The notes: a model not told the origin generated them from the sequence alone. Counted from the first letter of the stretch, positions 16,032-43,041 are shown. The stretch is DNA of 64,000 bases from Cyanophora paradoxa CCMP329 (GCA_004431415.1 QPMI01000038.1:124001-188000); one strand, 5' to 3'. Made by a program: numbers and translations.

Positions 16032-16315
16032 ACACATAGTAAAATGCGGAGTTTTAACCAGAGGCAAGATCTAATTGAGATTCAGTTATATTATTCGGAA
16101 ATATATACAGATTATCGATTAACTCAGTAAGACTAATCGGAAAATAAGAGAAATTTACGATAAAATATCGAAAAGAATACAAAATAATCGAAATAAATGA
16201 ATATTCGATAAGATATACACAGATTATCGATTGATTGAAATAGAATATACGAGATATATCAACAAAATCAATTAAGATTAAGCCGAGGGTTAAAACTCCG
16301 CATTTTACTATGTGT
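16032..16315. repeat. Terminal fold-back: perfect 28-bp inverted repeat around a 228-nt purine-rich spacer
   Basis: ACACATAGTAAAATGCGGAGTTTTAACC (16032-16059) and its exact reverse complement (16288-16315). Confidence 0.9.
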
Positions 16316-16842
16316 TCGAGTGTTTGACGAAGATATTGAGCCAGATCTGTCTTAAACATTCGCTGCGAGCGCTCTCGGTTTGCTTCAATTGTCGATGCTT
16401 CGAAACGTTTAACGTGAGCCTGGACTCTGGTCTCCAGAGTTGAGACCCATGTTACGAAGCTCGGGAAATAGTCAAGCCAGCGCGGCTGCCGAGCCGAGAA
16501 TGGTGGAGCTACCGGGGGGAGCGGGAGTTTGAGGTAGCTTGGTCTCTTGTCGACGGGCAGTTTATCGATCCGGCGGTTGTGATTGGAAATGGCCTTGCGC
16601 AGGTCGGAGAGGGAGTGCCGTATTCGGCGTGGGGTGGGGTCGACGCCATGGCGCGCTGCCTCCCATGCCTTTCGCAGTTCCTGGGACCGTGTGAGGAGGT
16701 TGGATTCCGGGCGGCCTCGGCGGGAGAATTTCTGAGGAATTTTCGGGGGAGTGTAGATCCCGAATACTGGCGACTGTCCAAGCTCACGAATATGAGTGAG
16801 CGTAGATTTGAGGGCTTCATGCAGACGGGCCAGGCGGTCGGT
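16316..16842 (-). pseudogene. Coding fragment truncated at the Polinton-like terminus (possibly non-LTR retrotransposon linker region)
   Basis: Protein-like stretch RLARLHEALK...FKTDLAQYLRQTLE stops looking natural exactly at 16315/16316; family is a guess. Confidence 0.35.
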
Positions 16843-16889
16843 CCCCCCCCCCCCCCCCCCCAGAGCCAGACGAGGCTCGCCCGGAAGCC

Positions 16890-17705
16890 GGCCCCTGCCG
16901 CCGGCGCCAGCGCCCCGCCCCGCCCCCCCGGCTCCAGCGCCCCGCCCCCGCCCTCCGGCTCCAGCGCCCCGCCCCGCCCTCCGGCTCCAGCGCCCCGCCC
17001 CCGCCCTCCGGCTCCAGCGCCCCGCCCCCGCCCTCCGGCTCCAGCGCCCCGCCCCCGCCCTCCGGCTCCAGCGCCCCGCCCCCGTCCTCCGGCTCCAGCG
17101 CCCCGCCCCCGCCCTCCGGCTCCAGCGCCCCGCCCCCGCCCCCCGGCTCCAGCGCCCCGCCCCTGCCCCCGGCTCCAGCGCCCCGCCCCGCCCTCCGGCT
17201 CCAGCGCCCCGCCCCGCCCTCCGGCTCCAGCGCCCGCCCCCGCCCTCCGGCTCCAGCGCCCCGCCCCCGCCCTCCGGCTCCAGCGCCCCGCCCCGCCCTC
17301 CGGCTCCAGCGCCCCGCCCCCGTCCTCCGGCTCCAGCGCCCCGCCCCTGCCCCCGACTCCAGCGCCCCGCCCCGCCCCCGGCTCCAGCGCCCCGCCCCGC
17401 CCTCCGGCTCCAGCGCCCCGCCCCGCCCTCCGGCTCCAGCGCCCCGCCCTGCCCCCGGCTCCAGCGCCCCGCCCCTGCCCCCGGCTCCAGCGCCCCGCCC
17501 CGCCCTCCGGCTCCAGCGCCCCGCCCCCACCCTCCGGCGCCAGCGCCCCGCCCCCGCCCTCCGGCTCCAGCGCCCCGCCCCCCCCCCCCCCCGGCGCCAG
17601 CGCCCCGTCCCCACCCTCCAGCTCCAGCGCCCCGCCCCCGCCCTCCGGCTCCGGCGCCCCGCCCTGGCCGCCCTCCAGCGCCCCGCCCCGCCGCCCCCCA
17701 CCCCG
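16890..17705. repeat. GC-rich minisatellite, 26-27-bp unit CCGGCTCCAGCGCCCCGCCC(C)CGCCCT, roughly 30 copies
   Basis: Direct tandem repetition; G-run-rich minus strand. Confidence 0.95.
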
Positions 17706-19104
17706 CTGTGCACCCTGCTCTCGACTTGACACAGATGGACACCTCAGTTATATCTCTAGCCATTTGTCTCGGTGTGTGCGAATTCATTTACAGCGTGCAC
17801 CCTGCTCCCCGCCCCCTTCCCTCCCTCCGTTCCGCCCCCGCCACACCCCACGCCCGTGCGCCCCGCCTCCCTCCCCCCCCTCCCCCAGGGCCAAGACTCC
17901 GACAGATAGCTCCTAGCTAGGGCAGACAGAGCCTTCCCCCCCCCCCTCCCCCTCTCGCAGGGCCAAGGACCGACTCGACTCCACACCGCTCCCACATAAT
18001 AGCTCGCAGCTAGCTAGGGCAGGGTAGCACGACGCCTCCCCTCTATGCCGCAGAGCAGGTAGAGCAGTCGGACGGTGCCCCCCCAGTCAAACTTCTATGA
18101 CGGGGCGGTAATTGTTGTCCTTTTAATACGAAAATTGCCCGGGTGGGCTTTTTGAAAAAACTATAGAGAGAGAGCCTAGTCCCGTACCCCCGAAGTCCCC
18201 AGCTAGAGAGAGCCTATATATATATATATTTAGAGCGAGGAGGCGGCAATTTATGTGGGCCTGCCCGCATCTATAGGGGACCTTCAAGTAGTTCATCTAT
18301 ATGTCTTCAAAAAGGCTTAAGAGGCTGTAAAAAAGGCTCGTAAAAGTCTCAAGGGAGACTCTGAGAGGGCGCGCCTGCCGGAGGCGGCGAGGCCGGCGAC
18401 GAGGGCGACGACGAGGCCCCAAAGCATCCCCGGGACGTCCAGCGCCGCCTCTGCGAAAGAAGTCAAGGGGAAACTGTTAGTTAGATGCAGGTAGAGCTTA
18501 AAGCTCGAGGCTCAAGAGGAAGGTGGATGTAAGTTTAACGTTGCCTCAGAGAAGCTTAGAGAACGTCATTCAATTTTTGAAGAAGCGCATAGTATGCGAA
18601 GGGTGCGGCTCAAGGCTTAATGTCCAGCGCACCGGGGCCCTGGGCGTGGCCCAGTGGGCCGCTTGATAGCTGAAGCTTGAGCTTAAAGTCTTAGGGCTCA
18701 AGACAGCTCAAAGAAACTTAATTACAGCTTTGTAAGAGGACTTTCGTTGAAGAAACGAAGCGCACCGGGGCCCTGGGCGTGTGCCGTTTTGGGGCTTAAA
18801 GGGCTTATAATTAAACGCTTAAAGGGCTCAAGAGAGCGTAAAGAAGCTTCATTGAATAGACTTTTATCGAAGGAGCGCACCGGGGCCGTGGGCGTGCGCC
18901 GCGTCGGCGCCCTGAAGGCGGCCAGGAGGTTCCCGAAGCGGCTCTTCTTCGCCAGGGCGGCGAACGTTCGGCCCTTGAGCATCCCGGAGCCCCCCAGCTG
19001 GCCCAGCAGGGCGCCCCAGCCGCCCCCTGCGCGCCGTCCGTGCCGTCCGCGCCGTCCGACGGTCGCGAGCGCCAAGTCCATTCGGCTCTTCGCCGCGCGA
19101 CCCT

Positions 19105-19189
19105 ACACATAAAGAAATACAAATTTAAATCCCTCCGCTTCGCGCTTCGCGCTTCGCTCCTGGATTTAAATTTGTATTTCTTTATGTGT
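19105..19189. repeat. Left terminal hairpin (28-bp stem, 29-nt loop with 3x GCTTCGC)
   Basis: ACACATAAAGAAATACAAATTTAAATCC ... GGATTTAAATTTGTATTTCTTTATGTGT. Confidence 0.92.
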
Positions 19190-19543
19190 AAATTAATCGA
19201 AAATATTTAAAAAATAAATCAAAATTTTTAATAAAATCAATTAAATTTAAATAAATTCGATTAAATTAATTGGTATAATATCAATTAAATTATGATTTTA
19301 TGAAATTTATATATATTTTTGATAAATTACGTATTTCTCGATTGATTTAATGATATAAACGCGATTAATTTGTATTTAAATGAAAAATACGTATTTTGCG
19401 ATTGATATAAACGCGATTAATTTGTATTTTATGCAAAATCGATATAATCTCGATTGAGGGAACATAAATTTATGATATAATCAATCACGATTGAAGTAGT
19501 CCAGCGCCCATTCTATCGTAAAACGCAAAAATTCACACAGAGT

Positions 19544-20130
19544 TGCATTATGTCCAATTAAACAATCGATGAAATATCGGATGAAAATAATTCACTCGTT
19601 ACTGCATTATGTCCAATTAAACAATCGATGAAATATCGGATGAAAATAATTTACTCGTTAGTGCATTATGTCCAATTAAACAATCGATGAAATATCGGTT
19701 GAAAATAATTCACTCGTTACTGCATTATGTCCAATTAAACAATCGATGAAATATCGGATGAAAATAATTCACTCGTTACTGCATTATGTCCAATTAAACA
19801 ATCGATGAGATTGCGGCGTATTTTGTTGGATTAGATGGTTACTGCTTCACGTCCAATTAAACAATCGATGAGATTGCGGAAAACAAAAATGACCCCAGAG
19901 TTGCATTATGTCCAATTAAACAATCGATAAAATGGGATTCTGTTTTTTACTGTTATAAAATTGTATCTGTGGTGCATTATGTCCAATTAAATAATCGTTG
20001 AGATTGCTGTGATAAAAATAATGAAAAAGGGACACTGAGTTGCATTGCGTCCGATTAAACAATTGATAAAATGGGATTCTGTTTTTTACTGTTATAAAAT
20101 TGTATCTGTGCTGCATTATGTCCGATTGAG
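19544..20130 (+). repeat. Subterminal repeat array: 4 x 59-bp units plus degenerate TGCATTATGTCCAATTAAACAATCGAT cores
   Basis: Seen directly; the mirror copy at ~42170-42580 has only one full 59-bp unit. Confidence 0.9.
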
Positions 20131-20139
20131 ACACACCAT

Positions 20140-20781
20140 TTACCGTCTCATATTACGACGTCTACGTATTTCAACTTCTGAGAATGTCTTAAAAATCTTG
20201 CATAATTCATTTTCGTGATCTGTGACATACCACATTCGATAACGTGGCTCGTATTTAGCGCCTTGCTTCTTCATGTATTTCCGTAAAGATGATTGCAAGA
20301 AAATACGTTTTTGTTCGAATTCGGGTAATCTCAGTTTGATATCACCAACAAAGTATCGACGACGTACGATGTCGTAATAATTCGGCTCGAAAACCATAGG
20401 GTCTATCGTCGCAAACTCTTTTAAGAGACGATGGTATTTATCCTCGACATAATAATGTTTCACATCGTATGCCCATTTCGCACCGTATCGCTCGATCTTA
20501 TGCGCGTATTCCTCTGGATCTCCGATATCTAAGACATAAACACCGTAATAATCCTTCGGTTCTGTGGTTGATCCACCGTTATACACAAATGGCTCCATTT
20601 CTGGTCTTTTTATTATCATAGATGTTTTCCCTTTAAGTAGTTTGAAGGTTTTTATGGTTTTGAAGAAATCCACCACCCATTGTGTATGTTCTTTTATGAT
20701 ATGTTGAATTTCATGTAGTCTTTTTGTGGTTCTCGATTGGATACAATCTTTATTAATGGTATCTCTGTAAAAATGAAGCAT
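20140..20781 (-). CDS. Protein with two DUF5710-like repeats
   Basis: YGAKWAYDVKHYYV and QGAKYEPRYRMWYV resemble the GA(K/R)W-x5-WY motif. Confidence 0.6.
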   Translation of the reverse strand: MLHFYRDTINKDCIQSRTTKRLHEIQHIIKEHTQWVVDFFKTIKTFKLLKGKTSMIIKRPEMEPFVYNGGSTTEPKDYYGVYVLDIGDPEEYAHKIERYGAKWAYDVKHYYVEDKYHRLLKEFATIDPMVFEPNYYDIVRRRYFVGDIKLRLPEFEQKRIFLQSSLRKYMKKQGAKYEPRYRMWYVTDHENELCKIFKTFSEVEIRRRRNMRR

Positions 20782-20789
20782 TTCTCGTT

Positions 20790-21623
20790 TTAGTTTTGAT
20801 TCTTTTTAACCAAACCGCGATATACTCTAACCGAATTACCTTTGTATTTCATTACCGATGATTCAATCTTAAAGCGTTTCTTAATTATATTGCTTATCCC
20901 ACGTGATTCTACCCATATATCTTTGTCGATTAACTCTAAACAATGATTAAATATATCGCTACAACGGGTGAATTTACTGAGGTCGTTGGTTAAAGTGTAG
21001 CTCTCATTTATAAAATCACATACAATCGTCTCGATATCTTTCTCTTTTTCGTTTTTGGTCTCTGTTGTAGTTTGCGTTTCGATCTTCACGAGACCTTTGA
21101 AAACATAGAGCATCTCATCGTAAAACATCTGAGAAGTTGGATTTAAACCATTGAACACTTCACGAACTCGATAAAGAATATCAGACTCATCGAAATTTGG
21201 CGCATTGGAATTTTTTAACATTCCGAAAACATCGCCAAGTAGCACGTATTGAGGTGTGTATTTGCTTGAATCTCCGGAAAAAACATAATTGCATTCAAGG
21301 TAGTCATCTATAACCTCGTTCCAATCTATTGGCTCTTCTTCTGATTCCTCATATAGATTCTTTTTTATCATCTGACGAATTCGCGCCCTTGCTGAACGCA
21401 ACGAATCCAATTTGTAGTATTCGCCTTCACAACTCTCGAACTCTTTCTTACATAACTTCTCGATTAAGCGTGGATTGCTACAATAGATCCACTCATAAAT
21501 TGAAAAGTTGGGTAAAGCTCGTGAGTATTGAGAAATGAGATTACTTACCGAAACAGTTGAGACACCAATTTTATACTTATTGTTCGCTTGAAATTCCGGG
21601 ACTGATCCGATATAAACCGCCAT
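20790..21623 (-). CDS. T5orf172/MUG113 (GIY-YIG-like) domain fused to two D5-C-like winged-helix domains
   Basis: N-terminal VYIG...YKIG...IEK; C-terminal DFINESY...VRVYRGL resembles the helicase C-terminus. Confidence 0.65.
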   Translation of the reverse strand: MAVYIGSVPEFQANNKYKIGVSTVSVSNLISQYSRALPNFSIYEWIYCSNPRLIEKLCKKEFESCEGEYYKLDSLRSARARIRQMIKKNLYEESEEEPIDWNEVIDDYLECNYVFSGDSSKYTPQYVLLGDVFGMLKNSNAPNFDESDILYRVREVFNGLNPTSQMFYDEMLYVFKGLVKIETQTTTETKNEKEKDIETIVCDFINESYTLTNDLSKFTRCSDIFNHCLELIDKDIWVESRGISNIIKKRFKIESSVMKYKGNSVRVYRGLVKKNQN

Positions 21624-21718
21624 TATGTCGCTTTTTTATATATATATGAGTTGTCTTATCTTTAAGTGGGTTTTCTTTTGGAAATTGACCTTAAACGCAC
21701 TTAGACAGTGTCTTGTTT

Positions 21719-22024
21719 TTAGAGTATTAAGTTTCCTTCTTTGTCGTATTGATCATTTAACCACGTCTTTATAATGAGTTCTACACATGATCTTGTGGCT
21801 TCCAATGACTCAAAAAGAAAGAAATCGCCTTCATGCTCATAAAGGTCACATAAATGCTTCTTTACTAATCGTGGGTTTCTACATTTGAACCACCCGTAGA
21901 TTGAAAACGCTTTCGATGATTGCTTATTAATCACATCATTTACTGAATCGGTTGATGATAACCCGACTTTGTAAGTCTTGTAAGCAACCAACTCGGGTGT
22001 TGATCCGATATACAGAATATTCAT
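21719..22024 (-). CDS. T5orf172-like paralog (101 aa)
   Basis: LYIGSTPE...YKVGLS...IYGWFKCRNPRLVKK aligns with the N-terminus of the adjacent 277-aa ORF. Confidence 0.65.
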   Translation of the reverse strand: MNILYIGSTPELVAYKTYKVGLSSTDSVNDVINKQSSKAFSIYGWFKCRNPRLVKKHLCDLYEHEGDFFLFESLEATRSCVELIIKTWLNDQYDKEGNLIL

Positions 22025-22123
22025 GTTATGATTCTTTTATAATCAATGTCGCTTCTTCTTAAATCATCGCATGAGTTCGTAAGCCTCCTCATATCCGATC
22101 GTTTACTTACGATTGGGTTTTTT

Positions 22124-22432
22124 TGGGGCTGTTGGGCGTTATTGGGCGTTGTTGGGCACTTGTTGGGCACTTGTTGGGCACCTTTGGGCACTTTTTAATC
22201 CAAGGTCTAAAAGATTTCTTAGAATACATTTTCAAAATTCTAATTTCATTCAAAACATTTTTTTATATAGAAAAACTTTCTTAAAACGGTGCCCAAAGTG
22301 CCCAATGACATTTAAAAAGTGCCCAATGATAAAAGAAGTGCCCAATGAAACCACTTACTGTAATACAAATATTGTAGAGATATAGACCATCTTTAATGAA
22401 AAAAAGAAGCGTTCTAAATGAAGTGCCCAATG
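22124..22432. promoter_or_regulatory. Origin-like module A' (TTGGGCAC/GTGCCCAA iterons around an AT-rich core)
   Basis: Inverted near-identical copy of ~27850-28045; function inferred. Confidence 0.55.
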
Positions 22433-22537
22433 ACCATTTGTAGTAAGAAGAAGATTCAAAATCTACTTTTATATATAAATCTCTTACTCTCATAGATTTA
22501 AGGATAAAACGATAATATATATGAAAGTAAAACTACA

Positions 22538-22849
22538 ATGCCTCGTAAATCAAATCAGCAACTGATGGCGGAACAGAGAGGGGAAGTTTACATTATGCCT
22601 TGCAAAGTGACACCTGAAATGCTCTTTTTGAGACGTGAAAAGATTAGAGAATATAATCGGAAATTTTATGAAAAAGTCAAACAGAAACGAATGGAAGACG
22701 GTGAGCCAACAATCACGCCTCCGAATAGAATCGCAAATAGTAGCCGTTACCAAATGCAACGATACGCGGAAGATGAAGAGTTTCGCAATCGACAGCGTGA
22801 GAAATCACGAGAGTATTATAGAAACAAGAAAATCGCCAGATCTTCTTAA
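22538..22849 (+). CDS. Small basic coiled-coil protein
   Basis: Paralog of 24605-25030 (RKSNQ, RYAEDEEFR); TTTAAGG motif upstream. Confidence 0.75.
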   Translation: MPRKSNQQLMAEQRGEVYIMPCKVTPEMLFLRREKIREYNRKFYEKVKQKRMEDGEPTITPPNRIANSSRYQMQRYAEDEEFRNRQREKSREYYRNKKIARSS

Positions 22850-22934
22850 TGCGGAAACCATGAGACCGTGGGTTGTTCTTTCTCTGATGCCTTTATTTCA
22901 GTGAGTTAAGGCATTTTCTTACTATAAATGACTA

Positions 22935-23265
22935 TCAGGCACTTTTAGATTTATGATTGCACCACTAATATACTCGATCTTTTCACTATTTTAAGATTTC
23001 TCTTACTGTTTATGATCGTCAGGCACTTTTGAAATGTCATCAGGCATTTCAGGCACATTTTTAGGAAACTTTTTTTATAGAAAAAACAAAACACAATGAA
23101 ATTGAATTTTTAAAAACAAATTTAAGAAAGATTTTTTAGACTCTCGATTAAAAGCGCCTGAAAGTGCCTGACTGCCTGAAAAAAGTGCCTGTCAATCTGA
23201 AAATTACATATCGCTTTTTGTGATAAAGAGACTGAAAGCGTGTAGCGATCTGGGAAGTGCCTGAA
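22935..23265. promoter_or_regulatory. Origin-like module B (TCAGGCAC/GTGCCTGA iterons)
   Basis: 4-5 repeats per side around an AT-rich core related to module A. Confidence 0.55.
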
Positions 23266-23379
23266 AGTATGTAGTGGGAAGAAAAGGGACTTAAAAAATG
23301 ACACGTTATAGTAGTGATTATAGAGGTAGGATTCTACTACATTGTTTTAGAAACAACTACGGCTTGTTACTGTATATGG

Positions 23380-23650
23380 TCTGTCTGACATTCTGTTTTT
23401 TAAATCGCCACAAAATGAAAATTGTGGTCTTCTTTAATCATTCTCACTCTTACTGTAATATGGTTTGTCTGACACTTTCTTTTTCTTCTGACACTATTTA
23501 AATGTATTCTGACACTGTTGACACTGTTTTGAAAAGTTTTCTTAATAATGAATGATTTTATAAAATTTGAATTTAGAAAACACACTCCAAGAAATCTTTT
23601 TTTAAAACCTCGATTAAAAAAGTCAGACTGTCAAAACAAGCGTCAGATAG
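23380..23650. promoter_or_regulatory. Origin-like module C (TCTGACA/GTCAGA iterons)
   Basis: Same AAGAAATCTTTT...CCTCGATTAAAAA core flanked by inverted repeats. Confidence 0.5.
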
Positions 23651-23717
23651 TTGCAACAAGAAAGGGGCTTAAAAAAATGACACGTTATAGTAGTGATTAT
23701 AGAGGTAGGATTTAACA

Positions 23718-24035
23718 ATGGCGTGCGCTAATTTCTCTACTCACCTTCACGAACTGGGAGTTGATTTTACAGACTTACACTCAGAAAAACGAGATGAGAT
23801 ATTGAAGAAAACAGTTGAAGCACGAGCAAGATGTGAAGGATATAAACCAAGTCAGATACCGTCTAAATTAAAACGCATACTTGAAGAGAAAGCGATCTCC
23901 TCAATGACAAAAACATTTGAGAGTTTCGATCATGATGTAAGACACAGTGGTAATCGCTTACAGTTGAAACTAAGAAAGAAGATTGACAAACGAAACGAGG
24001 CAATAGTTCTTAGTTATCTTCTCGGTTTAATTTAG
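23718..24035 (+). CDS. Hypothetical protein (105 aa)
   Basis: ATG ORF intact in both arms; CTTAAA motif upstream. Confidence 0.65.
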   Translation: MACANFSTHLHELGVDFTDLHSEKRDEILKKTVEARARCEGYKPSQIPSKLKRILEEKAISSMTKTFESFDHDVRHSGNRLQLKLRKKIDKRNEAIVLSYLLGLI

Positions 24036-24088
24036 GATTATTTCCAAAAAAATAACAAAAAACATGAAATTACTGTATTATTTCTTTT

Positions 24089-24421
24089 TCAAACCCGTTT
24101 AGAAAGGTCATAAACTCGTTTTACTACACCATTGATCCTCCGAGTATATGCTGAAATTCCAAAAACCTTTTTTATACTCAAACCTAAAACTCGTGGTGAA
24201 ACCTTTGAATCTAAAACTTGCTGTATTTGACTGAGTAAGATATCAGCCGGGATATATTCGCCATTCTTACTTATATCGAAGCAATATAGGAGGAAATCGC
24301 AAAAAGTCATAGGTCTCTTAACTTCATCGCTTTGTATTGAATTATTATAATCGTCTTCTTCTTCATCATCATAAATCTCAATAACGTAATCTGAATCTGT
24401 TTCATCCGTTACATATTCCAT
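24089..24421 (-). CDS. Stand-alone D5-C-like winged-helix protein with acidic N-terminus
   Basis: DFLLYCFDI...SPRVLGLSIKKVFG...RRINGVVKRVY pattern matches D5/P4-alpha C-terminal wHTH. Confidence 0.6.
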   Translation of the reverse strand: MEYVTDETDSDYVIEIYDDEEEDDYNNSIQSDEVKRPMTFCDFLLYCFDISKNGEYIPADILLSQIQQVLDSKVSPRVLGLSIKKVFGISAYTRRINGVVKRVYDLSKRV

Positions 24422-24604
24422 TCTATACGTTACAGATACTGTTTTTATCCGTTACATTTTATGGATGTATTTTATTGATTTATTCGATGATTACTTCAAG
24501 GACGTAGCAAAAAATGACGCTTTCCGAACATCCAAAAAGTATTTAAGGATTTGGGAAGTAAGATAAGTGAAATAGATATTATCTTGCTCTTATATAAAGG
24601 AAAA

Positions 24605-25030
24605 ATGGTGAGAACTCGGAAATCAAACCAAGAGCTTATTGCTATGCAGAAGGGTGCAGACCTCCCACGTGTTGAAAAGAAACCTACGCTAACAGAGGAA
24701 GAATGGGAAGAAAAAGCAAAGTTGAGACGTGAGAAAGACCGTGAGAGGAAACGTATTGTTTATCAAAAGGTGAAAGAAGAGAGAATCGCAAAAGGTGAAA
24801 AGACTGCAACTCCTCCTGAGAAATTGGAAAAGATGGCTTTGTATGTTCAACGTCGATATGCAGAAGATGAAGAATTCCGAAAGAGAAGAAAAGAGATTGT
24901 CCGGAGGTATCTGGAACGGAAACGACTTGAAAAGGTTGATGAGAAAGAGGCAATTAAGAAAACCGGACGTCCTCGTAAATACAATGCTTGTAATCCCGAT
25001 ACATCATCGGAAAGTATCGTAGCGAATTGA
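24605..25030 (+). CDS. Basic coiled-coil protein with AT-hook
   Basis: TGRPRKY AT-hook; paralog of 22538-22849; ATG at 24605 preferred to the upstream TTG. Confidence 0.75.
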   Translation: MVRTRKSNQELIAMQKGADLPRVEKKPTLTEEEWEEKAKLRREKDRERKRIVYQKVKEERIAKGEKTATPPEKLEKMALYVQRRYAEDEEFRKRRKEIVRRYLERKRLEKVDEKEAIKKTGRPRKYNACNPDTSSESIVAN

Positions 25031-25204
25031 TCGATCAGAGGTGAAAAAAATGACACTTAACTTTCTCCTTTTTTATAACCTAAGGCTAATCATTATAGTG
25101 CCGTGGGCAACCAAAAAGCATTTAAGGACTTCACAATAAGAACCAGTAAAGGGAATTCATCAATTTCCTCAGATTAATTTCTCTGAGAAAGGTAAGAATC
25201 CAAG

Positions 25205-27592: not shown

Positions 27593-27659
27593 CTCTTGAT
27601 ATTAAACAGAGCATTCGTATTTTTTATAAATCGTAAGAGGTTTTTCTTACTGTTTAAGG

Positions 27660-28060: not shown

Positions 28061-28157
28061 GTTAAAGTAAAAACGTTGCTTCAAATCACATTTGATAATG
28101 CATCACATATACGAGAATGTTTACAAAAACAATTAATAAAATCACTCACCGAGCGTT

Positions 28158-30434: not shown

Positions 30435-30607
30435 TTATGGTCGAATCTAATGATGCTACATATGTATTCGTCGAAAAAGAGAATTTACATTATGTTGCTC
30501 ATTGAAAACCTTAATATACTCTCTTTTTCCGGCTTACTAAAATAACAAATCCACTTTATGTGTGAAAAATCATTTAAAGTTAAAATAATAGACATTTCCA
30601 ATGTAAG

Positions 30608-31750: not shown

Positions 31751-31882
31751 AAGACACATAAAGTGGATTTGTTATTTTAGTAAGCCGGAAAAAGAGAGTA
31801 TATTAAGGTTTTCAATGAGCAACATAATGTAAATTCTCTTTTTCGACGAATACATATGTAGCATCATTAGATTCGACCATAA

Positions 31883-32425: not shown

Positions 32426-32581
32426 AACGCTTTATTTTTCAAAACTACCTATACAGGACATTGTAGCTGTTTGCGTAGATCGAAACATAAACCTACACGG
32501 TTCTGTGAAGCAAAACCACACATTTCTGTGAAGGTTTGTAAAAAAAGACCCATATTAAAGTGCGTTTGAAAGAGGGACATG

Positions 32582-33312
32582 TTATGAATTTGCGGTGTTC
32601 TCACGCGTTCGCATTCTCAATTGACCCGTAGAGATGTGATATTTAGTTTTGTTATAGAATGTCATTCTATCCATCCAATCTTTCGAGTCGGGATTAAATG
32701 TTTTTAGCCAATTCTCGAAATCCCAAGGGTTGTATGATTAAGACAATTGCACTCTTTCGCAGACACAGGGAATATTTTGCTACATTTCTTATCATTACAC
32801 ATACAGTTATTCATGTGTATGTCTGTTTCGTGTTCAGCTATGCATTTCTCAAAATAGGTAATCACATTATACGAATGGTCGTATTTTGGATCTTTCCCCT
32901 CTTTCATTAATTTCCTATCGCTCAGTGGTATATACTTTATTAAATGTCTCTGATCTGTGATAAGATCACAAGCGTCTACATTGCCGCAGTCCTCCTTAGC
33001 GAACCAAATCTTACATATCACTTTCTTTAAAACGGGTTTCTTCTTCTTACCATGGAAAGTCTCCCAATTCATATAAGTGTGATCTTGTTTACAGAGAGGA
33101 CAACTTACCCATGCTTTCGACAGAGAAAGATTAATTAAAAAAGCGTCATCTGAATCACAAAACGGTTTACCTTTACAAATTGGTAGGAGATCATACTTTG
33201 ATACATTCGCTTTATCCCAATCATCAAAACACTTCTTACAGAATTTGTGACCACATTCGAGTTTGGTAGCCTTCTTTGGGTTCAGCTTGTTCAAACAAAT
33301 GACACAATCCAT
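32582..33312 (-). CDS. Mirror copy of the RING protein (frameshift near 32728)
   Basis: Identical up to LNHTT. Confidence 0.75.
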
Positions 33313-33405
33313 CTCTGATGATTCGTTTTATTATAAGAGTTAACATGTCTTTAAGTGCTTTTTTCCTATTTAAAGAAAAAGCACCTTTGAAATAAAATAA
33401 GAAAC

Positions 33406-34158
33406 ATGTCGGAATCTCTCGTGTTTGCCTCTTCCGATTATGAAGCCGCGGAATTGTTTGTAAAAGATCTCGACGGCAAGTTTATACTATCTGATGGTGT
33501 CATTTACACTAAACAAAATAACCACCTATGGACGAATAATGTAGCGTTCATTAATCAAGCGATGCTCAAACTATGTATGCGTTTGAATGTCTACAAGAAG
33601 AACAGTAAAGGTGAGATTCTCCGTTATACACATAATTTAACGAATGCTCAAAAGGTCATTAAGATCTCAAAAGCGATTCTTGAAGATCGAAACGACTTTT
33701 ATAAACAGGTTATGAGACCGTCTACGATTGGTAAACTATGTTATCAAAACGGCGTCTACGATATAGAAACAAAGAGACTTATAGCATGGGATAAATGTGA
33801 AGGAATCTATGCTTTTTATTGTATATCTCGCGATCTCGTTGTAGATGAAACGGGAAAGATCGTAAAACCGTGTGAAATTAACATAAGTGAGTTGTACGAT
33901 AAGATTTTGAGACCGCTTTCTTACAAAATGACACTTAATGAAACGATGAAAGCCATTTATGATGCTCTCACCTTCAAACAAAATAATAAAATGTATCAAG
34001 ATTATGCAAAACGTGGTGATTGGGGAGGTTTGGTATCTTTCATGCGAAACACAGTTTTTGGTATGCAACCGTATATGTCCCATTTAGATATAATGAATCG
34101 TATCGAGATTATCCACAGTTTCGAGTGGGTCTTTTTGGAATCGTATAAATCAGAGTGA
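33406..34158 (+). CDS. Mirror copy of the truncated helicase paralog
   Basis: Identical 250 aa. Confidence 0.85.
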   Translation: MSESLVFASSDYEAAELFVKDLDGKFILSDGVIYTKQNNHLWTNNVAFINQAMLKLCMRLNVYKKNSKGEILRYTHNLTNAQKVIKISKAILEDRNDFYKQVMRPSTIGKLCYQNGVYDIETKRLIAWDKCEGIYAFYCISRDLVVDETGKIVKPCEINISELYDKILRPLSYKMTLNETMKAIYDALTFKQNNKMYQDYAKRGDWGGLVSFMRNTVFGMQPYMSHLDIMNRIEIIHSFEWVFLESYKSE

Positions 34159-34719
34159 AACGCTCGGTGAGTGATTTTATTAATTGTTTTTGTAAACATT
34201 CTCGTATATGTGATGCATTATCAAATGTGATTTGAAGCAACGTTTTTACTTTAACCATTGGGCATTTTTTTGGGCACTGTTGGGCACTTGTTGGGCACCT
34301 TTGGGCACTTTTTAATCCAAGGTCTAAAAGATTTCTTAGAATACATTTTCAAAATTCTAATTTCATTCAAAACATTTTTTATATAGAAAAACTTTCTTAA
34401 AACGGTGCCCAAAGTGCCCAATGACATTTAAAAAGTGCCCAACGATAAAAGAAGTGCCCAATGAAACCATAAACAGTAATATAGGTATAGAACAGATATA
34501 AACCATCTTTTCGAAAGAGTAACATATGTAAAAAAGAAGTGCCCAATGATAAAAGAAGTGCCAATGAAACCATAAACAGTAATATAGGTATAGAACAGAT
34601 ATAAACCATCTTTTCGAAAGAGTAACATATGTAAAAAAAGAAGTGCCCAACGACCTTAAACAGTAAGAAAACCTCTTACGATTTATAAAAAATACGAATG
34701 CTCTGTTTAATATCAAGAG

Positions 34720-37106
34720 TTACGCTTCGACATCGTCATCATCATCTACAAATCGGGTAGTAGAGATCAATTTAACGCCCTTATATCCTCGTTCATAAGT
34801 AGCTGTATTTCCCTTTCGAATAGCAGCTTTACTATATGTAGCGCCCATCAACACCATAACGCTTTTAATACGATTCGCGGACATGTTAAGTTTAAGTTCC
34901 TTCAATTTATCAACGACTGTTTTGCTTGATACAGCATCGGAAGGATCACGGGTGAATTCGAATGCGCTTTTAATTATTTGCATTTCGTCGCCCGCATCTT
35001 CACGAAACTCGCTTACGTCTTCGGCGATCTTCCCCGATACCACAAACTTCTGTGACTTGAAGGCTTCGAAAACCATGTATTCAAAGGCGTGAATAATTTC
35101 AGGACGTCGCAGCAGATCGCTTTTAATGTCTTCTGACGCCAAACGGAAACACGGGCTATTCATCTCTTCAACTGTTTTCTGATCGACGAATTTGTGGGGA
35201 TGCTTGAATAATACCATGGTTTGGAGTGTATCAGAAGGTGAGACGGGCGGCACATCATTCATGATCATCCATATACGACTTTGAAGTCGAATGTTAACCT
35301 CATTCTCATACAGAACACGCATACATTGCATATCACCACCTGATTCCTTCTTTTTGATCATAGCGCCGTTCAATTTGATATTGGTGTTTGAAACATCGAA
35401 TTTCATCTCTTGTGTGAAAGTCAAACGACGGAATTCACATGGCTTCATCCACTTCAATTTCGATGTATCATTATCGTCTACGCTTTTGTTTAAGAGGAAA
35501 GACTCACCGCTTATGGTGTGGACATAATCGCCCCATGTGTTCTCTTGAAGATTGACGTAAACCCCCTTTCCACAATTACGTTCACCCACCGATAGTCCCC
35601 ATTGCTTATCTTCATAACAACCCGCAACCGCACGAGCCGTAAATTCAAGAGCGGACGTTACACTTTCGGCACCGAAAACGGGTTCAAGAACTTTATCGTA
35701 GAGAGTCTGAATATCGGCATCGGATGGTTTGAGAATGTAGCCGTTATCATCCACGGGAAGGTCACGAGAGATTCGAGTAGTCGAGTAAACATTCTTACAA
35801 TCCTTCCACGGTGTAAGCTTCTTTGTCTTGAAATCATACACTCCGTTCTGATAGCATATTTTCCCAATGGTAGAACTCCATAACTCCTCGTAGAAATTCT
35901 GACGATTGGAAGGAGAGGGATTACAGCTTCGATGATTCTTTTAGCATTTGGTGTTTCACCGGAATATGATCTCAGGTTCCCTTTTGCGTCTTCTTTCACG
36001 AAATGCGCTTGCATGCACAATTTTAAGAGAATTCCCTTCACCAATTTCGTATCCTCAGTCCATAGGCTGTCGTCCTTCCGGGCGAAAATACGACCGTCAC
36101 ATTTGATGATTTGCCCCTCGATATCATTAACGAATAATGAGGCAGCATGTGAATCGTCGATAATTACCCGGCAGAGAGGAATTCCTTCATCCAAATTTGC
36201 GGGGATTTCAAATCCTTGATCCATCGGTTTAATCAGCAATCCAACCTTATAACCGATTGTGTTTTCGATATATTCCGATGCTTCCTTCAAGATGGATGCA
36301 ACACGCTCTTCCGGAAATTTTGGGTCTTTCTCAATCATACAACCATCGAAAACGAGAACTCCAACCTTAATACCCAGTGAAGTGAGATACTCACAAAGAG
36401 CCATGAGGCATTGATTCTCGATATTACAGAGAACCATATTAACTACCGAACCGAGGATGTTGTGGTCTTTCTTCTTCTTGCAGATGAGTAGGTAGTTTTT
36501 GTTTTCGGGTATGTTTGCGATAAGAGCATGAATACCAGCCATTTCCTCTTTTAATTTTTTGAAATCGGGGTGATTGAGAAGAGCTTCGTTGTCAGTTCCG
36601 TCGCCGCCGTTAATAACAGAAAGGAATGCACGTTTAATGTCTTCACGAGTGAGTCTCGATTTCTCGATTATATCGGCGATGATAGAGTCGCGATTTTCAA
36701 CGTAATTAGCAAGAGCGTTGCATGCGATTTCATTTTTTTTACAATATTGGATAAGAAGCGTTGGGTGAGCGTTAATCATATCGATATCAATATAGTTTTC
36801 ACGGGCAAGTGTGTGTCGAAATTCACGGGGCATCTCTTGCATCGAAACCTGTTTTTTCTTTATGTTTCGAACGTTAGAGTAATAGCGCCCGGTGTTGTGT
36901 GAGCATTGGCGATATTTAACAGTGATGCGATCACTTCGGTTCAAACTCTTAAAGTATTTGTTTAGAAGCGTCAGAGTGGCGGTTGGATCGACTTGTGGGC
37001 GATACTTCAACTCATCAAAGTTTTCGATCAGGTATTTAAGGACATGACGGTTAGCCTTCTCGGAGAGGGTTATATCAGATGCGTTGGGTTGCTTGGCGTT
37101 AAACAT
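34720..37106 (-). CDS. Mirror copy of TVpol-SF3 helicase (single frameshift near 35908)
   Basis: The 482-aa and 373-aa ORFs together cover the 795-aa protein. Confidence 0.85.
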
Positions 37107-37279
37107 CTTGGATTCTTACCTTTCTCAGAGAAATTAATCTGAGGAAATTGATGAATTCCCTTTACTGGTTCTTATTGTGAAGTCCTTAAATGCTTTTTGG
37201 TTGCCCACGGCACTATAATGATTAGCCTTAGGTTATAAAAAGGAGAAAGTTAAGTGTCATTTTTTTCACCTCTGATCGA

Positions 37280-37705
37280 TCAATTCGCTACGATACTTTC
37301 CGATGATGTATCGGGATTACAAGCATTGTATTTACGAGGACGTCCGGTTTTCTTAATTGCCTCTTTCTCATCAACCTTTTCAAGTCGTTTCCGTTCCAGA
37401 TACCTCCGGACAATCTCTTTTCTTCTCTTTCGGAATTCTTCATCTTCTGCATATCGACGTTGAACATACAAAGCCATCTTTTCCAATTTCTCAGGAGGAG
37501 TTGCAGTCTTTTCACCTTTTGCGATTCTCTCTTCTTTCACCTTTTGATAAACAATACGTTTCCTCTCACGGTCTTTCTCACGTCTCAACTTTGCTTTTTC
37601 TTCCCATTCTTCCTCTGTTAGCGTAGGTTTCTTTTCAACACGTGGGAGGTCTGCACCCTTCTGCATAGCAATAAGCTCTTGGTTTGATTTCCGAGTTCTC
37701 ACCAT
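37280..37705 (-). CDS. Mirror copy of the AT-hook coiled-coil protein
   Basis: Identical translation. Confidence 0.75.
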   Translation of the reverse strand: MVRTRKSNQELIAMQKGADLPRVEKKPTLTEEEWEEKAKLRREKDRERKRIVYQKVKEERIAKGEKTATPPEKLEKMALYVQRRYAEDEEFRKRRKEIVRRYLERKRLEKVDEKEAIKKTGRPRKYNACNPDTSSESIVAN

Positions 37706-37888
37706 TTTTCCTTTATATAAGAGCAAGATAATATCTATTTCACTTATCTTACTTCCCAAATCCTTAAATACTTTTTGGATGTTCGGAAAGCGTCATTTTT
37801 TGCTACGTCCTTGAAGTAATCATCGAATAAATCAATAAAATACATCCATAAAATGTAACGGATAAAAACAGTATCTGTAACGTATAGA

Positions 37889-38221
37889 ATGGAATATGTA
37901 ACGGATGAAACAGATTCAGATTACGTTATTGAGATTTATGATGATGAAGAAGAAGACGATTATAATAATTCAATACAAAGCGATGAAGTTAAGAGACCTA
38001 TGACTTTTTGCGATTTCCTCCTATATTGCTTCGATATAAGTAAGAATGGCGAATATATCCCGGCTGATATCTTACTCAGTCAAATACAGCAAGTTTTAGA
38101 TTCAAAGGTTTCACCACGAGTTTTAGGTTTGAGTATAAAAAAGGTTTTTGGAATTTCAGCATATACTCGGAGGATCAATGGTGTAGTAAAACGAGTTTAT
38201 GACCTTTCTAAACGGGTTTGA
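37889..38221 (+). CDS. Mirror copy of the winged-helix protein
   Basis: Identical translation. Confidence 0.6.
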   Translation: MEYVTDETDSDYVIEIYDDEEEDDYNNSIQSDEVKRPMTFCDFLLYCFDISKNGEYIPADILLSQIQQVLDSKVSPRVLGLSIKKVFGISAYTRRINGVVKRVYDLSKRV

Positions 38222-38274
38222 AAAAGAAATAATACAGTAATTTCATGTTTTTTGTTATTTTTTTGGAAATAATC

Positions 38275-38592
38275 CTAAATTAAACCGAGAAGATAACTAA
38301 GAACTATTGCCTCGTTTCGTTTGTCAATCTTCTTTCTTAGTTTCAACTGTAAGCGATTACCACTGTGTCTTACATCATGATCGAAACTCTCAAATGTTTT
38401 TGTCATTGAGGAGATCGCTTTCTCTTCAAGTATGCGTTTTAATTTAGACGGTATCTGACTTGGTTTATATCCTTCACATCTTGCTCGTGCTTCAACTGTT
38501 TTCTTCAATATCTCATCTCGTTTTTCTGAGTGTAAGTCTGTAAAATCAACTCCCAGTTCGTGAAGGTGAGTAGAGAAATTAGCGCACGCCAT
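38275..38592 (-). CDS. Mirror copy of the 105-aa hypothetical protein
   Basis: Identical translation. Confidence 0.65.
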   Translation of the reverse strand: MACANFSTHLHELGVDFTDLHSEKRDEILKKTVEARARCEGYKPSQIPSKLKRILEEKAISSMTKTFESFDHDVRHSGNRLQLKLRKKIDKRNEAIVLSYLLGLI

Positions 38593-39455
38593 TGTTAAAT
38601 CCTACCTCTATAATCACTACTATAACGTGTCATTTTTTTAAGCCCTTTCTTGTTGCAACTATCTGACGCTTGTTTTGACAGTCTGACTTTTTTAATCGAG
38701 GTTTTAAAAAAAGATTTCTTGGAGTGTGTTTTCTAAATTCAAATTTTATAAAATCATTCATTATTAAGAAAACTTTTCAAAACAGTGTCAACAGTGTCAG
38801 AATACATTTAAATAGTGTCAGAAGAAAAGAAAGTGTCAGACAAACCATATTACAGTAAGAGTGAGAATGATTAAAGAAGACCACAATTTTCATTTTGTGG
38901 CGATTTAAAAACAGAATGTCAGACAGACCATATACAGTAACAAGCCGTAGTTGTTTCTAAAACAATGTAGTAGAATCCTACCTCTATAATCACTACTATA
39001 ACGTGTCATTTTTTAAGTCCTTTTCTTCCCACTACATACTTTCAGGCACTTCCCAGATCGCTACACGCTTTCAGTCTCTTTATCACAAAAAGCGATATGT
39101 AATTTTCAGATTGACAGGCACTTTTTTCAGGCAGTCAGGCACTTTCAGGCGCTTTTAATCGAGAGTCTAAAAAATCTTTCTTAAATTTGTTTTTAAAATT
39201 CAATTTCATTGTGTTTTGTTTTTTCTATAAAAAAAGTTTCCTAAAAATGTGCCTGAAATGCCTGATGACATTTAAAAAGTGCCTGACGATCATAAACAGT
39301 AAGAGAAATCTTAAAATAGTGAAAAGATCGAGTATATTAGTGGTGCAATCATAAATCTAAAAGTGCCTGATAGTCATTTATAGTAAGAAAATGCCTTAAC
39401 TCACTGAAATAAAGGCATCAGAGAAAGAACAACCCACGGTCTCATGGTTTCCGCA

Positions 39456-39767
39456 TTAAGAAGATCTGGCGATTTTCTTGTTTCTATAATACTCTCGTGA
39501 TTTCTCACGCTGTCGATTGCGAAACTCTTCATCTTCCGCGTATCGTTGCATTTGGTAACGGCTACTATTTGCGATTCTATTCGGAGGCGTGATTGTTGGC
39601 TCACCGTCTTCCATTCGTTTCTGTTTGACTTTTTCATAAAATTTCCGATTATATTCTCTAATCTTTTCACGTCTCAAAAAGAGCATTTCAGGTGTCACTT
39701 TGCAAGGCATAATGTAAACTTCCCCTCTCTGTTCCGCCATCAGTTGCTGATTTGATTTACGAGGCAT
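39456..39767 (-). CDS. Mirror copy of the small basic protein
   Basis: Identical translation. Confidence 0.75.
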   Translation of the reverse strand: MPRKSNQQLMAEQRGEVYIMPCKVTPEMLFLRREKIREYNRKFYEKVKQKRMEDGEPTITPPNRIANSSRYQMQRYAEDEEFRNRQREKSREYYRNKKIARSS

Positions 39768-40278
39768 TGTAGTTTTACTTTCATATATATTATCGTTTTA
39801 TCCTTAAATCTATGAGAGTAAGAGATTTATATATAAAAGTAGATTTTGAATCTTCTTCTTACTACAAATGGTCATTGGGCACTTCATTTAGAACGCTTCT
39901 TTTTTTCATTAAAGATGGTCTATATCTCTACAATATTTGTATTACAGTAAGTGGTTTCATTGGGCACTTCTTTTATCATTGGGCACTTTTTAAATGTCAT
40001 TGGGCACTTTGGGCACCGTTTTAAGAAAGTTTTTCTATATAAAAAATGTTTTGAATGAAATTAGAATTTTGAAAATGTATTCTAAGAAATCTTTTAGACC
40101 TTGGATTAAAAAGTGCCCAAAGGTGCCCAACAAGTGCCCAACAAGTGCCCAACAACGCCCAATAACGCCCAACAGCCCAAAAAAACCCAATCGTAAGTAA
40201 ACGATCGGATATGAGGAGGCTTACGAACTCATGCGATGATTTAAGAAGAAGCGACATTGATTATAAAAGAATCATAAC

Positions 40279-40584
40279 ATGAATATTCTGTATATCGGAT
40301 CAACACCCGAGTTGGTTGCTTACAAGACTTACAAAGTCGGGTTATCATCAACCGATTCAGTAAATGATGTGATTAATAAGCAATCATCGAAAGCGTTTTC
40401 AATCTACGGGTGGTTCAAATGTAGAAACCCACGATTAGTAAAGAAGCATTTATGTGACCTTTATGAGCATGAAGGCGATTTCTTTCTTTTTGAGTCATTG
40501 GAAGCCACAAGATCATGTGTAGAACTCATTATAAAGACGTGGTTAAATGATCAATACGACAAAGAAGGAAACTTAATACTCTAA
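40279..40584 (+). CDS. Mirror copy of the T5orf172-like protein
   Basis: Identical translation. Confidence 0.65.
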   Translation: MNILYIGSTPELVAYKTYKVGLSSTDSVNDVINKQSSKAFSIYGWFKCRNPRLVKKHLCDLYEHEGDFFLFESLEATRSCVELIIKTWLNDQYDKEGNLIL

Positions 40585-40678
40585 AAACAAGACACTGTCT
40601 AAGTGCGTTTAAGGTCAATTTCCAAAAGAAAACCCACTTAAAGATAAGACAACTCATATATATATAAAAAGCGACATA

Positions 40679-41511
40679 ATGGCGGTTTATATCGGATCAG
40701 TCCCGGAATTTCAAGCGAACAATAAGTATAAAATTGGTGTCTCAACTGTTTCGGTAAGTAATCTCATTTCTCAATACTCACGAGCTTTACCCAACTTTTC
40801 AATTTATGAGTGGATCTATTGTAGCAATCCACGCTTAATCGAGAAGTTATGTAAGAAAGAGTTCGAGAGTTGTGAAGGCGAATACTACAAATTGGATTCG
40901 TTGCGTTCAGCAAGGGCGCGAATTCGTCAGATGATAAAAAAGAATCTATATGAGGAATCAGAAGAAGAGCCAATAGATTGGAACGAGGTTATAGATGACT
41001 ACCTTGAATGCAATTATGTTTTTTCCGGAGATTCAAGCAAATACACACCTCAATACGTGCTACTTGGCGATGTTTTCGGAATGTTAAAAATTCCAATGCG
41101 CCAAATTTCGATGAGTCTGATATTCTTTATCGAGTTCGTGAAGTGTTCAATGGTTTAAATCCAACTTCTCAGATGTTTTACGATGAGATGCTCTATGTTT
41201 TCAAAGGTCTCGTGAAGATCGAAACGCAAACTACAACAGAGACCAAAAACGAAAAAGAGAAAGATATCGAGACGATTGTATGTGATTTTATAAATGAGAG
41301 CTACACTTTAACCAACGACCTCAGTAAATTCACCCGTTGTAGCGATATATTTAATCATTGTTTAGAGTTAATCGACAAAGATATATGGGTAGAATCACGT
41401 GGGATAAGCAATATAATTAAGAAACGCTTTAAGATTGAATCATCGGTAATGAAATACAAAGGTAATTCGGTTAGAGTATATCGCGGTTTGGTTAAAAAGA
41501 ATCAAAACTAA
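40679..41511 (+). CDS. Mirror copy of T5orf172-wHTH protein (frameshift in A-run near 41090)
   Basis: Two ORFs cover the 277-aa protein. Confidence 0.65.
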
Positions 41512-41519
41512 AACGAGAA

Positions 41520-42161
41520 ATGCTTCATTTTTACAGAGATACCATTAATAAAGATTGTATCCAATCGAGAACCACAAAAAGACTACATGAAATTCAACAT
41601 ATCATAAAAGAACATACACAATGGGTGGTGGATTTCTTCAAAACCATAAAAACCTTCAAACTACTTAAAGGGAAAACATCTATGATAATAAAAAGACCAG
41701 AAATGGAGCCATTTGTGTATAACGGTGGATCAACCACAGAACCGAAGGATTATTACGGTGTTTATGTCTTAGATATCGGAGATCCAGAGGAATACGCGCA
41801 TAAGATCGAGCGATACGGTGCGAAATGGGCATACGATGTGAAACATTATTATGTCGAGGATAAATACCATCGTCTCTTAAAAGAGTTTGCGACGATAGAC
41901 CCTATGGTTTTCGAGCCGAATTATTACGACATCGTACGTCGTCGATACTTTGTTGGTGATATCAAACTGAGATTACCCGAATTCGAACAAAAACGTATTT
42001 TCTTGCAATCATCTTTACGGAAATACATGAAGAAGCAAGGCGCTAAATACGAGCCACGTTATCGAATGTGGTATGTCACAGATCACGAAAATGAATTATG
42101 CAAGATTTTTAAGACATTCTCAGAAGTTGAAATACGTAGACGTCGTAATATGAGACGGTAA
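41520..42161 (+). CDS. Mirror copy of the DUF5710-like protein
   Basis: Identical translation. Confidence 0.6.
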   Translation: MLHFYRDTINKDCIQSRTTKRLHEIQHIIKEHTQWVVDFFKTIKTFKLLKGKTSMIIKRPEMEPFVYNGGSTTEPKDYYGVYVLDIGDPEEYAHKIERYGAKWAYDVKHYYVEDKYHRLLKEFATIDPMVFEPNYYDIVRRRYFVGDIKLRLPEFEQKRIFLQSSLRKYMKKQGAKYEPRYRMWYVTDHENELCKIFKTFSEVEIRRRRNMRR

Positions 42162-42934
42162 ATGGTGTGTCTCAATCGGACATAATGCAGCACAGATACA
42201 ATTTTATAACAGTAAAAAACAGAATCCCATTTTATCAATTGTTTAATCGGACGCAATGCAACTCAGTGTCCCTTTTTCATTATTTTTATCACAGCAATCT
42301 CAACGATTATTTAATTGGACATAATGCACCACAGATACAATTTTATAACAGTAAAAAACAGAATCCCATTTTATCGATTGTTTAATTGGACATAATGCAA
42401 CTCTGGGGTCATTTTTGTTTTCCGCAATCTCATCGATTGTTTAATTGGACGTGAAGCAGTAACCATCTAATCCAACAAAATACGCCGCAATCTCATCGAT
42501 TGTTTAATTGGACATAATGCAGTAACGAGTGAATTATTTTCATCCGATATTTCATCGATTGTTTAATTGGACATAATGCAACTCTGTGTGAATTTTTGCG
42601 TTTTACGATAAAATGGGCGCTGGACTACTTCAATCGTGATTGATTATATCATAAATTTATGTTCCCTCAATCGAGATTATATCGATTTTGCATAAAATAC
42701 AAATTAATCGCGTTTATATCAATCGCAAAATACGTATTTTTCATTTAAATACAAATTAATCGCGTTTATATCATTAAATCAATCGAGAAATACGTAATTT
42801 ATCAAAAATTTATATAAATTTCATAAAATCATAATTTAATTGATATTATACCAATTAATTTAATCGAATTTATTTAAATTTAATTGATTTTATTAAAAAT
42901 TTTGATTTATTTTTTAAATATTTTCGATTAATTT

Positions 42935-43041
42935 ACACATAAAGAAATACAAATTTAAATCCTGAGCGACAGAGCGAAATGAGCGCGAAGCGCGAATTGA
43001 GCGATAGAGCGAGGGATTTAAATTTGTATTTCTTTATGTGT
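42935..43041. repeat. Right terminal hairpin (28-bp stem, 51-nt GAGCG-rich loop)
   Basis: Same 28-bp stem at 42935-42962 and 43014-43041. Confidence 0.92.

Follow-up and report, generated by a model that had tools for sequence, protein, structure and literature searches.

We analysed a 64,000-nt window of the genome of Cyanophora paradoxa CCMP329 (GCA_004431415.1, QPMI01000038.1:124001-188000; positions are counted from its first letter), in which the host DNA, read directly, is that of a GC-rich eukaryote with apparent introns. Two mobile elements lie near each other in this window. One occupies 19105-43041 (23,937 bp) and is referred to here as the 24-kb element; the other is an integrase-bearing, Polinton-like element that has the tail of a probable gene for a protein-primed DNA polymerase B (pPolB) and its right end at 16315. 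The 24-kb element is a near-perfect palindrome in which two 11.4-kb arms surround one endonuclease gene. An earlier reading of the window from sequence alone (hereafter the sequence-only reading) had proposed that the 24-kb element is a satellite mobilised in trans by the integrase family of its neighbour; absent from that account were the giant palindrome and the splitting of the neighbour's integrase gene by an 862-bp insertion.

The left arm of the 24-kb element (11,459 bp; 19105-30563) contains a 59-bp tandem array, several inverted iteron-like modules and 11 open reading frames (ORFs) of 101-795 aa. The right arm (31754-43041), which begins ACACATAAAG, is an inverted copy of the left, matching it at 99.8% over 10,845 bp. 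Between them, a unique centre of 1,190 bp (30564-31753) carries on the plus strand a gene for a 380-aa homing-type endonuclease (30608-31750; PHROG 559, E = 1e-73). A 1,250-nt short-read contig over 30534-31783, covering the centre and 30 nt of each arm, was present in all three DNA runs (X1, X3 and X16) at depths of 28.9, 32.9 and 84.2, compared with 74.1, 64 and 196 for the adjacent arm contig (arm-to-centre ratios of 2.56, 1.95 and 2.33). Recovery of the centre and both inner junctions in every DNA run, at about half the arm depth, indicates that the palindrome is real and present at about a single locus. The arms also differ by 17 single-base gaps in homopolymers, every one of which shortens the right arm; errors of assembly probably account for them, given that read contigs align to the left arm without gaps over 24022-27692.

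Both ends of the 24-kb element are inverted repeats with perfect 28-bp arms (19105-19189 and 42935-43041), separated by GC-rich spacers of 29 nt and 51 nt, respectively, and as predicted hairpins they are highly stable (folding z about -10 to -12; 0/200 shuffles equally stable). On either side lies the 6-bp target duplication GACCCT (plus strand; 19099-19104 and 43042-43047), for which the chance expectation is about 4e-4 given the flank composition. A third inverted repeat, at 16032-16315, has perfect 28-bp arms around a 228-nt AT-rich spacer and is followed by TCGAGT. The first and last 7 bases are identical across all three fold-backs (ACACATA...TATGTGT), and their positions and perfect stems are as the sequence-only reading had described them. 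Neither 28-bp stem had an exact match in IMG/VR, and a perfect fold-back starting ACACA was found in none of 184 public loci (81 of them with some fold-back of at least 18 bp), which extend no further than 10-kb flanks and may not reach the ends. Among the same truncated loci, inverted repeats of at least 500 bp occurred in only two and giant palindromes in none; the longest was a perfect 1,733-bp inverted repeat (1-1733 and 12466-14198) in a replicase-bearing locus (L072).

The 24-kb element interrupts a Gly/Arg/Ala-rich minus-strand frame (18725-19104 and 43042-43174) in GC-rich DNA. This frame had no family match in Pfam or NCBIfam, and variant copies of the region exist elsewhere (joint 18781->18870). 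Run X20 shows another GC-rich sequence flanking 19105, which indicates at least one further insertion site of the 24-kb type of end. The AC...GT ends and the 6-bp duplication rule out movement by Gypsy or hAT enzymes, the norms of these families being TG...CA ends or an 8-bp duplication. According to the available text of one survey, rve integrases typically leave a 6-bp target duplication and tyrosine recombinases leave none (PMC12220804).

The largest gene of each arm encodes a 795-aa replicase (25205-27592, plus strand). Its predicted N-terminal structure (pLDDT 91) resembles the Klenow, Taq and apicoplast PolA polymerases, and its C-terminal part resembles poxvirus D5 and the SaPI5 primase-helicase and matches TIGR01613. 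Judged by this model and by profile and structure matches, it is a replicase of the TVpol-S3H type of Polinton-like viruses (PLVs), combining a PolA-family polymerase with a D5-like superfamily 3 (SF3) helicase. Further along the arm are a partial paralog of the replicase D5 region (250 aa; 28158-28910, minus strand; 40% over 186 aa) and a RING-finger protein (243 aa; 29002-29733, plus strand; Pfam zf-C3HC4), besides which each arm has eight small ORFs without confident assignment. The only stop-free frames longer than 281 codons in the element are those of the replicase and the endonuclease. Searches of all 12 element ORFs against Pfam, PHROGs and NCBIfam revealed no integrase, whether rve or tyrosine recombinase, and neither a capsid protein of the double jelly-roll major capsid protein (MCP) type nor a packaging ATPase. 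The element has the inverted termini and 6-bp target duplication of PLVs and virophages and, as in a satellite, no integrase, while sharing ACACATA hairpin ends with a candidate helper.

Apart from the replicase, the D5 paralog and the endonuclease, the ORFs of the element had no homologs in the 184 public loci. No homolog of the 277-aa ORF reached E <= 0.001, and the 213-aa and 180-aa ORFs gave weak Atlas leads only (DUF5710, 0.76, and the RegA-like PF01818, 0.87, respectively), the latter being a weak likeness to T4 RegA-type translation repressors. The 180-aa gene, which adjoins the palindrome axis (29725-30606), was covered about 7-13 times as deeply as the centre, with many substitutions, and is common to more relatives than the replicase. 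Paralogous pairs of small ORFs within 20790-22024 and 22538-25030 (277/101 aa, 40%; 103/141 aa, 44%) indicate that the arm grew by internal duplication. Each arm also has inverted iteron-like modules with differing repeat units (22130-22350, 22935-23260, 23450-23520 and 27660-28060), which are possibly multiple origins read by different DNA-binding domains; public loci with a replicase, L008, L014 and L045 among them, have similar arrays. Runs X20 and X22, which were guessed to be RNA, do not cover the replicase or most of the integrase described below, an absence that says nothing on expression.

The neighbouring element is visible in part only. A Gypsy-type long terminal repeat (LTR) retrotransposon (1-11394, plus strand) with frameshifted reverse transcriptase, RNase H and integrase (Pfam RVT_1, RT_RNaseH, Integrase_H2C2 and rve), for which other flanks at 11394/11396 were seen in run X22, sits in the pPolB gene and hides the remainder of the Polinton-like element, whose left end, like any capsid module (MCP, ATPase and protease), is outside the window; TCGAGT followed by ACAC does not occur within the window. 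The pPolB named in the sequence-only reading is probable from a C-terminal match to Polinton pPolBs, with the qualification that only its last ~25 codons (11395-11475, plus strand) remain after truncation by the Gypsy LTR. This tail is like the extreme pPolB C-termini of loci L092, L093 and L098, three of five candidate polymerases in the first set of loci compared (45% over 22 aa to L092/L098), and of L081 (52% over 21 aa), although a small profile run against the window reached E = 0.34 only. In L081, the best public integrase relative, a PF03175 pPolB with the same kind of tail lies directly 5' of the integrase.

The integrase gene itself (11479-13726, plus strand; Pfam rve) is 78% identical to an intact 463-aa homolog (P0027) and has D, D and E motifs in its 3' part. 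In a 34-row homolog alignment, D128 and D190 are invariant and E226 is near-invariant, an acidic triad as in the integrases of Polintons/Mavericks. The present copy is interrupted by the retro-type insertion of 862 bp, which has a poly-T start and a 19-bp duplication at 11728 and 12590; uninterrupted sites were found among the read contigs (joint 11727->12590 in X1 and X16, and 11734->12596 in X3). Within the integrase, 11747-12589 had very deep cover in run X22, which suggests a highly transcribed short retroelement. No close integrase relatives were found in IMG/VR or JGI metagenomes.

Downstream of the integrase gene, an 803-bp insertion (13949-14751) with the 8-bp duplication CTTGGGAG (13941-13948 and 14752-14759) appears to be hAT-like from its duplication length and termini. 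The window holds a 1.9-kb duplicate (44226-46142; 99.7%) of 12831-14750, comprising the integrase 3' part and this insertion and stopping at its right terminus; it may be flanking DNA carried along by the hAT-like element. Beyond the insertion lies an AT-rich end region (14752-16031; GC 30-35%) with an inverted iteron-like module at 15671-15795 and high depth from about 15350 on. A two-fold terminal inverted repeat (TIR) signal was considered for the depth step at 15350 and dropped because the ratios were inconsistent.

We found that 16315 is the true boundary of a high-copy family, as summed contig depth collapses from 10,576-55,178 in the last full bin before it to 70-143 beyond it. In run X22, one contig covers 15191-16073 and another stops at 16315. 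Contigs from X1 and X16 have 116 other letters left of 16315. In all three DNA runs, contigs skip the 803-bp insertion (13940->14752, depths 605, 422 and 1130 in X1, X3 and X16; 13942->14761, depths 385, 274 and 614). Since other copies join the sequence downstream of the integrase directly to 14752, the 16315 end is linked to a Polinton-type integrase in at least some copies, and the 13940->14752 joint weakens the caveat, raised by the sequence-only reading, that 14.8-16.3 kb might be the end of another satellite-type element. The summed depth of the integrase gene was 313-555 times that of the centre contig of the 24-kb element, although summed depth is not copy number. The 16315 end interrupts a long minus-strand reading frame (16316-17787) with a 27-bp GC-rich tandem array (30 copies); a Pfam search of this frame gave no match, and we take its last 170 codons to resemble the region preceding the reverse transcriptase domain of non-LTR retrotransposons.

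The stems of the two kinds of end had been called otherwise different beyond their tips, and those of the satellite were thought to mimic the Polinton end. Instead, 18/28 stem positions are identical between the 16315 type and the 24-kb type, 11/21 of them beyond the common 7-mer (permutation p about 0.011), so that the two stem types are probably homologous on sequence grounds. A third stem variant of the TATGTGT type was found in an X16 contig after the integrase-type loop at 16278, and in an X20 contig before the 24-kb-type subterminal repeats at 19407. In addition, contigs exiting the 24-kb-type tandem array at 19930 (X3, X16 and X20) continue into a 21-mer like 15750-15770 with 2 mismatches (0/100 shuffles), and a motif shared at 24/26 positions flanks iteron modules of both elements (15671-15695 and 23449-23474). 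The ends of both families therefore look as if they share descent and recombine, rather than one mimicking the other. Their closeness is not itself evidence of a helper relation, since the two elements are not nested but lie 2.8 kb apart, with GC-rich repetitive DNA between them.

A further copy of the terminus lies at the palindrome axis. The window contains six copies of the terminal 10-mer CTTTATGTGT, against 0.10 expected (about 0.02 per arm): one in each of the four hairpin arms and one at each of the two arm-centre junctions; the copy at the inner end of the left arm is at 30554-30563, on the plus strand. No duplication was found around the palindrome centre. Because the axis sits exactly on this 10-mer, a terminus or terminus-like site appears to have been involved in formation of the palindrome.

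Taken together, a 6-bp duplication of the rve type, an element without an integrase and an abundant rve family with related ends lead us to favour, at a probability of about 50%, that the 24-kb element was inserted in trans by the rve integrase family of the abundant pPolB elements. The 24-kb element would be a palindromic derivative of a PolA-D5-helicase PLV. The integrase would read only about the last 7-10 bp (…TATGTGT-3'), making the ends of both families substrates, and these ends would be shared through descent and recombination among several end subfamilies and not through convergence. The internal 10-bp copy of the terminus could have served as a cryptic end for the integrase, such that an 11.4-kb unit came to lie head-to-head with a sister copy, the joint falling immediately past the endonuclease gene, in the style of a composite transposon, the outer ends then mobilising the composite; alternatively, it could have been a fold-back point for copying. 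The portion with the capsid and integrase genes would have been lost during palindrome formation. We also propose that replication of the element relies on the polymerase-helicase that it encodes and starts at the iteron modules or at the terminal hairpins. Slide-back initiation at ACAC, to which the sequence-only reading had appealed, would fit at most the pPolB family, as the replicase here is PolA-like and not a pPolB; hairpin priming or iteron-directed initiation seems likelier. More tentatively, a capsid-less, integrase-less PolA-D5 satellite family might swap end modules with pPolB Polintons and ride their integrase, and reading of ~10 bases might also lead to cryptic internal ends and thereby to Tn10-like giant-palindromic composites that capture cargo such as the homing endonuclease.

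Of the proposal of trans mobilisation in the sequence-only reading, what holds is the lack of an own integrase in an element that nonetheless carries a 6-bp duplication; the identity of the helper and the placing of insertion after integrase loss are proposals. Assignment of the pPolB family as helper is plausible, and several observations weigh against it. The pairing of integrase and end is drawn from sequence comparison, and the mosaic ends that connect the families are loose ends of 20-40 letters. No contig among the read contigs spans from the integrase to 16315, the end-to-integrase depth ratio is inconsistent (2.41, 0.83 and 1.49), and depth over 14.8-15.35 kb is 13-35% of integrase depth, so that only some integrase copies continue into this segment. 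With its centre contig at single-locus depth, although a second flank at 19105 exists in X20, the palindrome may be a single event and not a family, and diverged arm relatives are present in the same runs at depths up to 390-817 per bin. We scanned 60 of 81 ORFs from seven of eight chosen public loci with close full-length relatives of the replicase: most of these are capsid-bearing viruses, with an MCP match in four of the seven (L005, L006, L008 and L054), and L071 carries its own rve integrase and an A32 ATPase. Of the other loci, L025 encodes kinases and a protein with a YqaJ domain, whereas the scanned ORFs of L039 gave no capsid or integrase match.

The distribution of differences between the arms raises another account, which we consider possible though rather unlikely. 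Within the outermost ~620 bp the arms differ by 2 substitutions, by the length of the loop and by 177 bp of array (19135-19722), whereas the inner 10.8 kb has only 3 substitutions; an older insertion with an interior copied later fits this pattern too. An autonomous PolA-helicase virus with its own rve would have integrated at GACCCT with no helper, and its right interior would later have been replaced in place by the inverted left arm through a template switch at the 10-bp terminus-like site and re-entry through the TIR. The centre being a single locus is in keeping with this, as is L071, where a replicase of the PolA-helicase type lies beside its own rve; moreover, TIR regeneration after truncation is reported for endogenous virophages of Cafeteria (EMALEs) in the accessible part of that work (PMC8547959). 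Such a course, however, requires two precise template switches and an unseen parent, and the 10-mer at the axis still needs a terminus as its source. Nor did a second integrase family turn up, though no search for one was made in this genome.

Equally, insertion in trans need not have involved the pPolB neighbour. In an account that we regard as unlikely, the integrase came from an autonomous member of the element's own PolA-helicase family, and the neighbour, in a region rich in transposons, is merely a relative whose ends are similar. Arm relatives and another insertion site of the 24-kb type do exist, the families differ at 10/28 stem positions and in their loops, and the two elements are un-nested in repetitive DNA. 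Cafeteria virophages, as far as the available text reports, have an rve type that accompanies pPolB and a second that accompanies long primase-helicases (PMC8547959), and EMALE types 1-7 carry an rve integrase (PMC8547959). The mosaic ends, on the other hand, connect both families, which suggests a common end-processing system, and the pPolB-linked integrase is abundant in these runs; insertion by the pPolB family remains our preferred reading. Finally, we hold it highly improbable that the palindrome is an assembly artefact from a fold-back long read or mis-polishing, for although right-arm gaps confined to homopolymers are typical of an unpolished duplicate, one short-read contig crosses the centre into both arms in each DNA run, and host sequence differs between the two sides, each of which has the 6-bp duplication.

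Elsewhere in the window, an intron-rich host gene was apparent by direct reading at about 47500-53600, its exons presumably encoding a subtilisin-type protease.

Two inverted copies of a unit around a unique centre, with end-like inner junctions, are known from the Tn5/Tn10 composite transposons and from spacer-containing giant palindromes such as Tetrahymena rDNA, a likeness in architecture that we take as an analogy and no more. Non-autonomous Polintons with shared TIRs were reportedly part of the original Polinton descriptions. Terminal palindromes and integrase-less integrated PLVs are already published. In the available text on endogenous virophages and PLVs of Halocafeteria seosinensis, palindromes inside TIRs adjoin the target duplication, as they do here; they accompany mostly replicases other than pPolB (PolA-S3H among them) and particular rve integrases, priming from hairpins is proposed, and fragments without core genes retain TIRs and duplications and are proposed to depend on complete copies (bioRxiv 10.64898/2026.07.28.741278). 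In contrast to the 24-kb element, complete Halocafeteria elements have capsid modules and integrases, and that text describes no whole-element palindrome, axis terminus motif or sharing of ends between pPolB and PolA elements (bioRxiv 10.64898/2026.07.28.741278); here, the pPolB family too has a fold-back end, with its 228-nt loop.

PLVs and virophages with TVpol(PolA)-S3H replicases (among them L005, L006, L008, L054 and L071) share the replicase architecture, accessory RING and homing-endonuclease genes, a GC content that is low against a GC-rich host, and inverted iteron-like arrays near the replicase, to judge from the accessible portions of two reports (PMC3671162, PMC12220804). Compared with these, the 24-kb element is without major or minor capsid protein, packaging ATPase and integrase, and has 11.4-kb arms instead of TIRs of 0.1-8 kb (PMC3671162, PMC12220804). 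Two partly available studies describe an integrated PLV without an encoded integrase, Ca_PLV1 (PMC11296320), and PolA/AEP replication modules without integrase (bioRxiv 10.64898/2026.10.13.758929), both like the 24-kb element in this respect; trans supply or independent module mobility was suggested, and endonuclease genes lie beside replicases (PMC11296320, bioRxiv 10.64898/2026.10.13.758929). Ca_PLV1 differs in having capsid genes, and its helper is not named in the part available (PMC11296320), whereas the genome with the 24-kb element also harbours a candidate helper whose ends appear homologous. Transpovirons, as described in the available sections of two papers, are likewise capsid-less linear elements with inverted termini, PLV-derived by loss of the morphogenesis module, but they are about 7 kb, have a superfamily 1 (SF1) helicase fused to an inactivated pPolB and are carried by mimiviruses (PMC5499653, PMC3671162); the present element has a PolA-D5/SF3 replicase, measures 23.9 kb and sits in a nuclear genome. 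The literature searched, which comprised few subscription papers and no supplements, yielded neither a whole-element palindrome nor a case of pPolB and PolA elements with shared ends, and the Halocafeteria and cryptophyte fragment tables could hold cases. The structure described here is real and well supported, and is a variant of known helper-dependent PLV derivatives.

A palindrome of 24 kb, with centre junctions recovered in several runs, is in itself unusual. The locus also offers three natural end variants, with the same 7-bp tip and 28-bp stem length and with different stems, together with a 10-bp internal copy at a rearrangement junction, and these form a direct substrate set for the question of what Polinton-type rve integrases recognise. 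Capsid-seeded genome surveys, such as an MCP-based screen as outlined in its available text (PMC10120064), would miss elements of this kind. Should the trans model be true, a helper would be identified for an element without integrase, and replication modules whose polymerase belongs to another family would be able to survive as satellites.

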